Source: Eledone cirrhosa (taxonomy: Eukaryota). From it: a stretch of 64,000 nt of DNA. The stretch lies in the NCBI GenBank assembly GCA_964016885.1, contig OZ024740.1, positions 42,966,001 through 43,030,000 of the forward strand, written 5' to 3'. The notes beneath the pieces were generated by a model. It searched no databases, was not told where the DNA came from, and saw only the letters and a program-made list of their open reading frames with translations. Numbering within the stretch: the stretch's first letter is position 1; each line of letters opens with the position of its first letter. Shown here in pieces: positions 39,530 to 40,110 of the stretch. The position numbers were made by a program, and so were the translations under genes.

Positions 39530-40110
39530 ATATATATATGAATGTATAAATAGTGTATTTTGCAGTACACTGTATGCTTAATTAAAAGCATTTCGAAGAC
39601 CTTACGCTATTGTTTTAGAGTAGTGACAGTCTCACTTACTTTAATTTTCTGCAAACTGGGGAGATAAAGCTGACAGAGCTCTGTTTCGCACTTTTTGGTG
39701 CTTATCTAAAACAATAGCGTAAGGTCTTCGAAATGCTTTTAATTAAGCATACAATGTATTGCAAAATACACTATATATACATTCATATATATATTGCTAT
39801 TTCAGAGCACCCATTCTAATTTTCAATTTCTGCTTGACCGGCAACGGCTCTGTATAATCAGTTCCTGATTATTACTAGAATTCTATAAGAATCAAACATT
39901 CATGATTTTCAGCAAACAAGAGGAGTACTTAGCTTTGATAAGCACCAAAAAGTGCGAAACAGAGCTCTGTCAGCTTTATCTCCCCTGTTTGCTGAAAATT
40001 AAAGTAAGTGAGACTGTCACTACTCTAAAACAATAGCGTAAGGTCTTCAAAATGCTTTTAATTAAGCATACAGTGTATTGCAAAATACACTATATATACA
40101 TTCATATATA
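39530..40110 (+). mobile_element. Non-autonomous retrozyme-like unit I (319-bp period, 5' inverted segment)
   Basis: 39707-39790 is repeated at 40026-40110. 39530-39706 is the reverse complement of ~39937-40110. Flanked by (TA)n. Confidence 0.85.
39931..39975 (+). ncRNA. Type I hammerhead ribozyme with U3-A8 core (family I)
   Basis: AGCT-TTGATAA-GCAC caaaaa GTGC-GAA-ACAGAGCTCTGT-C|AGCT; distal helix TTTTCAGCAAACA/TGTTTGCTGAAAA. Confidence 0.85.

Follow-up and report, generated by a model that had tools for sequence, protein, structure and literature searches.

Results

What is the hammerhead-like motif at 39931 to 39975, in what kind of element does it reside, and where does its U3-A8 core pair come from? 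The window, by which we mean the whole analyzed stretch of 64,000 nucleotides, is AT-rich, microsatellite-rich eukaryote DNA from a genome of 3.0 Gb. We put the probability at about three in four that the motif belongs to a 319-bp retrozyme-type unit without open reading frame (ORF), likely mobilized by Penelope elements, and that its U3-A8 pair is likely a derived, compensatory form of C3-G8.

A type I hammerhead motif carrying U3-A8

Inspection of the sequence, a descriptor, and alignment to Rfam HH9 identified a type I hammerhead on the plus strand at 39931 to 39975. As read from the sequence, AGCU at 39931 to 39934 pairs with AGCU at 39972 to 39975 in stem I, the core UUGAUAA occupies 39935 to 39941, and stem II consists of GCAC (39942 to 39945) and GUGC (39952 to 39955) closing the loop CAAAAA. 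GAAA follows at 39956 to 39959. Stem III is provided by the self-complementary 12-nt palindrome ACAGAGCUCUGU (39959 to 39970, plus strand; sequence and folding), and the GUC site places the predicted cut after 39971. The initial annotation had described a well-formed hammerhead with 4-bp stems I and II, a palindromic stem III, and a GUC site, which the sequence confirms. It had given the distal helix as 13 bp; we count 14 Watson-Crick pairs, 39905 to 39918 with 39986 to 39999, which together with an internal loop form a long hairpin around the ribozyme (39905 to 39999, plus strand; sequence and folding).

The positions required of a type I core are present, namely, a 3-8 pair, U4 G5 A6, A9, G12 A13 A14, A15.1-U16.1, and H17, and the motif is a U3-A8 variant with every other core position in place. 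The three helices, with an open-ended stem I, can be formed; in folding predictions, the minimum-energy structure of the monomer departs from the active one. Rfam HH9 aligns with 28.4 bits (E value of 1.8e-5 in a 201-nt search) and does not reach its gathering score of 52. The fold of the 100-nt ribozyme region exceeds chance, since its z score is -6.7 and 0 of 200 shuffles were equally stable. The motif is a genuine and likely functional type I hammerhead in a new retrozyme family.

The 319-bp unit and its copy in the window

The ribozyme sits inside a tandem unit with a spacing of 319 bp. This corresponds to the organization of a non-LTR retrozyme, a tandem unit of ~170 to 400 nt with one type I hammerhead per unit. 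In dimers, two cores lie 319 to 322 apart, and one locus (L083) holds an array of ~12 units. The longest stop-free frame of the doubled unit is 55 amino acids, and the unit is thus without coding capacity and without a reverse transcriptase (RT) or endonuclease ORF of its own.

In the window (locus L001), a forward arm of 409 nt (39705 to 40113, plus strand) comprises 1.28 copies of the unit, extends as far as its TA tract, and there continues into (TA)n. It is preceded by an inverted, 5'-truncated arm of about 177 nt (39530 to 39709, minus strand), which is 97% complementary to the forward arm and, beginning within the core, lacks a whole ribozyme. Insertion mapping and alignment delimit an internal TA tract (39785 to 39794) with a "tail" of 26 to 33 nt behind it (39785 to 39823 in all, plus strand). 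The two form the most conserved stretch between subfamilies, and nearly all insertion 3' ends are located there. By sequence, a (CA)n(TA)n microsatellite lies left of the insertion (39408 to 39539) and (TA)n lies to its right (40104 to 40149); this flanking microsatellite is likely the insertion target. The initial annotation mentions neither the 319-bp unit nor its inverted arm, and it does not include the sister families with C3-G8 described below.

Three runs, one of them from a second organism, also contain contigs with the unit; as the kind of these runs is not recorded, the contigs cannot show expression. One contig with a GUAC variant of stem II (run X4, record 14, corresponding to window positions 39906 to 40024) has a depth of ~400, versus 4 to 21 elsewhere among those listed; with the kind of run unrecorded, array and transcript are indistinguishable.

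Subfamilies and origin of the U3-A8 core

Relatives of the unit were grouped into subfamilies A, A2, B, and D, letters introduced in this analysis, with A denoting that of the window copy. A genome pattern search for A revealed 179 exact 30-mers with UUGAUAA and none with C3-G8 (CUGAUGA, a majority of which would have spoken against the proposal in the initial annotation); two matches with a nucleotide other than U at position 3 carry single changes, neither of them C3-G8. U3-A8 is thus fixed in A, which bears out the proposal of a second, separate U3-A8 family. A2, with stem II GUAC/GUAC, has 305 matches and shows U3-A8 in 99 of the 100 among the matches listed. For B (247 matches), C3-G8 was found in 93 and U3-A8 in 0 of 100 matches listed. 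B and A share a common scaffold with about 85% identity outside the hairpin and 68% inside, B having stem II ACAC/GUGU, a 10-nt palindrome, and a period of 317 to 318. The shape of the hairpin is kept while its sequence diverges faster than the remainder of the unit. D is a 310-bp unit with a minimal ribozyme and 11,375 matches (C3-G8 in 100 of 100 among those listed), and it occurs in long head-to-head arrays.

A tree of 19 rows calculated without the hairpin columns recovers A and A2 as a clade (97/99) and D as a distant group (100/100); B is unresolved in this tree, one B row being partly non-homologous, and the root is a single distant family (D). Because D, as the outgroup, is a C3-G8 family, sequence comparison indicates that the U3-A8 pair of A and A2 is likely derived from C3-G8. 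Across 22 sequences, 98.5% of cells are paired, and 3 of 12 pairs (3-8, 10.1-11.1, and 10.2-11.2) have changed on both sides; these double-sided changes amount to about three events, not 22, and three such pairs are reached in 198 of 500 shuffles, a control that the count thus fails.

As to the D arrays themselves, their arms can hold 20 or more units that are nearly identical (L037:2092-4763 and L090:9053-9753; further arrays at 5.39, 15.43, 36.04, and 36.48 Mb of G000:C1), compared to 1 to 2 units in A and B, and they are suggestive of long rolling copying. A distant C3-G8 relative of the 319-bp unit with another stem II was found at L124:3080-3188 (nhmmer E value of 3e-4).

Insertion anatomy at 92 loci

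We mapped insertions at 92 loci, comprising the 30 best DNA matches, 2 with a variant core, and 60 from the first 100 exact-core matches listed. Simple head-to-head pairs were present at 52 of the 92, and 36 of these 52 pairs have the tail on exactly one arm. The unit was found to end at the TA tract (70) or the tail (72) in 142 of 155 free 3' ends, with (TA)n following in 105 of 155; the cleavage site was the end of the insertion in 0 of 155. Arms longer than one unit (76 of 182) or longer than 461 nt (19 of 182) were also seen, in a sample chosen throughout for holding the core, so that arm lengths are biased and the presence of arms that run across the cleavage site partly reflects the choice of loci. 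Insertion ends run into (TA)n, and a target-site duplication, which in non-LTR retrozymes exceeds 4 bp when present, is unreadable within TA runs.

An inverted 5'-truncated arm, a tail at one end, and a microsatellite target are characteristic of Penelope-type integration. In the accessible text of Craig et al. (10.1101/2021.04.23.441226), partial tandems, an inverted 5'-truncated copy, microsatellite bias, and a 30- to 40-bp tail on one end are given as Penelope traits. The head-to-head arms, the tail on one arm, and the 3' ends at the TA tract or tail thus make the insertions of the 319-bp unit look Penelope-made. An ORF for RT and GIY-YIG endonuclease, as expected of an autonomous Penelope-like element, was joined to the unit at none of the 92 loci, and about 1 Mb of sequence (0.03% of the genome) contained no Penelope element that has both an ORF and the unit.

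The same element might also be copied from uncut linear multimers, with a ribozyme that is weak or merely trims precursors and with no circle formed. The lack of insertion ends at the cleavage site would agree with this, arrays able to supply multimers exist (L083), and in vitro cleavage is poor for minimal Penelope hammerheads in the accessible part of PMC4209133; likewise, in the part of the Li et al. 2026 preprint (10.64898/2026.07.22.740005) that is accessible, 8 of 9 predicted retrozyme dimers were inactive and only 1 of 9 cleaved in vitro. We nevertheless consider this route improbable, as both partners have changed in the core pair and within stem II, which implies that the fold is under selection, and as canonical retrozymes of coral, mussel, and axolotl yield circles (PMC7229834, accessible text). 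Even less probable, and by a wide margin, is that the unit is nothing more than the terminal repeat (pLTR) of a Penelope element with an ORF, every copy of which has been truncated at its 5' end. Families C and J, described below, do have ribozymes of this pLTR kind, and the insertion anatomy is identical, but upstream of the ribozyme, the 92 loci show further sequence of the 319-bp unit, an inverted arm, or flank unrelated to it; moreover, arms of at least two units exist, and an nhmmer search of five loci that carry ORFs gave no match to the unit. We favor an ORF-less retrozyme-type unit that is likely moved by Penelope enzymes.

Other U3-A8 families in the genome

Family C is a separate element with a U3-A8 hammerhead of its own (414 to 449, plus strand; sequence and pattern search), and its cores were found in the window at 417 (plus), 6886 (plus), and 8755 (minus); equating these copies with the family C of the initial annotation is an identification made here. 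UUGAUAA had been said to be common to both families, but family C reads UUGAAAA. The accompanying statement that the two have no visible similarity outside the core was slightly overstated, core and stem II being 81% alike over 27 nt (E value of 0.04 in a small search). A pattern search yielded 4,669 matches for family C, with U3-A8 in 98 of 100 among those listed. At L173, a family C ribozyme lies at the 3' end of a Penelope-type element, behind an ORF with RT (RVT_1, E value of 6e-4, below cut-off) and GIY-YIG (E value of 1e-5) similarity, and this ORF-bearing stretch is 93% alike at L174. A family C relative with UUGAAAA and GCAA replacing GAAA, and thus with a core altered twice, is present in many copies (L012, L036, L045, L047, and L053, e.g., L053:7374-7484).

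A third family, J, came to light in a flank; it has 396 matches with U3-A8 in 100 of 100 among those listed and lies within 98 to 99% direct repeats around an RT-endonuclease-like ORF (loci L171 and L181). Pfam did not recognize the J-element ORFs, and among their Atlas neighbors, GIY-YIG or RVT_1 occurs on a minority of members. We take these ORFs as RT-endonuclease-like, and the fragments of the window listed below as endonuclease, on the basis of their Atlas neighbors and of characteristic motifs. The endonuclease of J shares 36% identity with its counterpart in the C3-G8 family to which the 29886-29956 motif belongs and does not align with that of C, and the RTs of J and C share 26% identity over 147 amino acids. 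It is likely that U3-A8 arose at least three times in this genome, a count that rests on pairwise sequence comparisons. That A instead gained U3-A8 together with G10.1-C11.1 as a patch by template switch from the abundant family C, and not by stepwise compensation, is hardly credible: A does differ from B at positions 3, 8, 10.1, and 11.1 and equals C at all four, in line with the 81% likeness given above, but this match is weak, and mid-stem II, N7, stem I, and the palindrome are B-like, so that two patches would be required. Stepwise compensation from C3-G8 remains our preferred origin for the pair.

Four pattern sets for U3-A8 groups together yielded 5,549 matches genome-wide, pattern totals varying in strictness and not being comparable as shares. 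In 450 kb of flanks, the descriptor found 29 Y3-R8 motifs (8 U3-A8, 20 C3-G8, and 1 U3-G8), with 5 of the 8 U3-A8 motifs being extra copies of the unit by which loci were picked and some families escaping the descriptor; reversed and three shuffled controls contained 0 motifs of these classes. Sorted by eye, the flank motifs represent three U3-A8 families and one unclassified versus six C3-G8 families. The suggestion that U3-A8 is frequent in this lineage holds for this genome, while its description as otherwise uncommon does not, the variant being reported in the accessible parts of PMC4209133 and PMC3088659.

The CUGAUAA core at 29886 to 29956 (minus strand) had been regarded as a decayed or intermediate state. 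Sequence and family count assign it to a separate element as a C3-A8 copy of a C3-G8 family with 1,603 matches. The 100 matches listed comprise 94 C3-G8, 2 C3-A8 (one of them the window copy), 2 U3-G8, and 2 others, with 0 of 100 showing U3-A8, which argues for decay and against an intermediate. A Penelope-type endonuclease fragment lies 786 nt ahead of this motif. A second C3-A8 motif at 20520 to 20585 (plus strand) has the stem I of the same family and lies 1,384 nt behind the endonuclease-like ORF at 18286 to 19173.

Predicted folding and proposed mechanism

Folding was predicted using ViennaRNA, which ignores tertiary contacts. In the monomer, AGCUUUG (39931 to 39937) is predicted to pair with CAGAGCU, tying up the palindrome, and the active fold of the A monomer, linear or circular, lies at +3.7 kcal/mol. 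When two units are joined, as in the natural dimers L016 and L083, their palindromes are predicted to form a 12-bp stem III; here, the double hammerhead lies at +0.7 kcal/mol and the monomer-type fold at 11 to 12 kcal/mol. The A2-type dimer L158 (double hammerhead, +3.0; first unit as monomer, +0.7) and the B dimers (+2.2, +2.5, and +9.5) fit such a dimer preference less well than L016 and L083. The predicted 319-nt circle is 61% paired (z score of -4.6 versus 40 shuffles), much of which may be explained by one long hairpin. In predicted read-through of the window copy, the inverted arm imposes a penalty of 60 kcal/mol on the ribozyme; because this arm would pair over the ribozyme, the window copy is likely silent when read through from the left.

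Reading C3-G8 into A raised the median monomer penalty from 3.8 to 6.7 kcal/mol (43 distinct copies). Selection of U3 for relief from misfolding was considered and rejected as unneeded, the natural C3-G8 subfamily B already being at 6.4 kcal/mol (14 copies).

Based on these predictions and by analogy, we propose the following course. In a single unit, the AGCUUUG/CAGAGCU pairing would block the active fold, and in a dimer, the palindromes would join as a 12-bp stem III and allow the double hammerhead to form. Arrays may thus give rise to multimeric transcripts that are cut after GUC into 319-nt monomers, and the monomers may circularize as described for published retrozymes (PMC7229834, accessible text). 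A Penelope RT-GIY-YIG protein could then nick (TA)n and prime at the UA tract or tail of the unit, and copying beyond one unit would leave the inverted second arm.

More tentatively, and with the odds clearly against the full combination, at least three independent fixations of U3-A8 might be joined with epistasis in the core, an on/off switch in the retrozyme, and Penelope enzymes copying circular RNA. G10.1-C11.1 follows directly after A9 in all three U3-A8 groups, i.e., the retrozyme clade and two distant Penelope families, and C3-G8 relatives tolerate A-U or U-U at 10.1-11.1; the shared pair in the U3-A8 groups points to an epistasis rule in the catalytic core. The ribozyme of the retrozyme clade would be off in the circle through the 7-bp helix and on in multimers through palindrome pairing, and the insertions would be a record of Penelope enzymes copying circular RNA, primed at the internal UA tract.

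Relation to known hammerheads and retrozymes

U3-A8 cores and retrozymes are both already known, and the U3-A8 swap described here falls between related families. For S. mansoni, Cervera and de la Pena reported about 1,300 U3-A8 matches in addition to some 2,000 minimal hammerheads (PMC4209133), and Perreault et al. described several natural cases of U3-A8 covariation, citing earlier in vitro work for activity (PMC3088659); both statements refer to the accessible texts. Within the literature covered, which leaves aside subscription papers and supplements, PMC4209133 was the only paper listed for the term "U3-A8", and no paper joined a hammerhead with non-autonomous Penelope-like, inverted, tailed insertions in microsatellites. 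U3-A8 may be documented for canonical motifs or for related animals in the supplements of PMC4209133 and of PMC7229834.

Like the metazoan non-LTR retrozymes in the accessible parts of PMC7229834 and 10.64898/2026.07.22.740005, the element has a tandem non-coding unit in the range of 170 to 400 nt with one type I hammerhead each, a palindromic stem III, predicted dimer cleavage, and co-occurring Penelope elements. Unlike these, its core is of the U3-A8 type, its palindrome measures 12 nt and is predicted to be blocked by a helix, where published cases have a stem III of 1 to 2 bp, and its arms mostly hold 1 to 2 units, face each other head to head, and have the tail on one side, within (TA)n; the accessible texts of the two sources do not describe such an anatomy for retrozymes. 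With the Cercyon Penelope hammerheads of S. mansoni it shares core covariation and high copy number in an invertebrate genome. The Cercyon motifs are of the minimal pLTR type, in which stem II is long, a bulge is present, and stem III is nearly absent (PMC4209133, accessible text), whereas the window motif has a 4-bp stem II and an HH9-type loop and lies inside an ORF-less unit. Rfam Hammerhead_HH9 (RF02275) has the same type I layout, an identical loop 2 (CAAAAA), and a 4-bp stem II; the window motif differs from it in its score (28.4 bits versus the cut-off of 52), its U3-A8 pair, a shorter proximal stem I, and its location within a mobile repeat. GIY-YIG Penelope-like elements likewise show partial tandems, an inverted 5'-truncated arm, a tail at one end, and microsatellite bias, but the 319-bp unit differs from them in having no RT or endonuclease ORF.

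The sister ribozymes of A, A2, B, and D offer a natural series of 3-8 pairs on a shared scaffold with which to test what permits the swap. The anatomy of the insertions suggests that Penelope enzymes mobilize a retrozyme, a link that in the accessible published work consists of co-occurrence and pLTR similarity; Li et al. (10.64898/2026.07.22.740005) relate vertebrate retrozymes to pLTRs.

Other elements in the window

At 15563 to 17560, 3.4 tandem copies of a 478-bp unit, accompanied by an inverted arm, carry a minimal C3-G8 hammerhead on the minus strand, with cores at 16764 (minus), 16286 (minus), and 17357 (plus) and the palindrome ACUAGU, and represent another retrozyme-like family. Further C3-G8 hammerhead-like motifs are located at 7165 to 7235 (plus), 14420 to 14470 (minus), and, inside a 530-bp direct repeat, at 41335 to 41390 and 41865 to 41920 (both minus). 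Three Penelope-type endonuclease fragments with a Cys-rich linker were found at 18286 to 19173 (plus), 21725 to 22615 (minus), and 30986 to 31711 (minus); Pfam did not recognize them, and among their Atlas neighbors, a minority of members carry GIY-YIG or HTH_animal. A broken LINE-type retrotransposon with a zinc knuckle, AP endonuclease, pieces of RT, and zf-RVT spans 42347 to 47590 (plus). Finally, a tRNA-like sequence (50756 to 50827, minus; 52 bits) lies amid SINE-like repeats.
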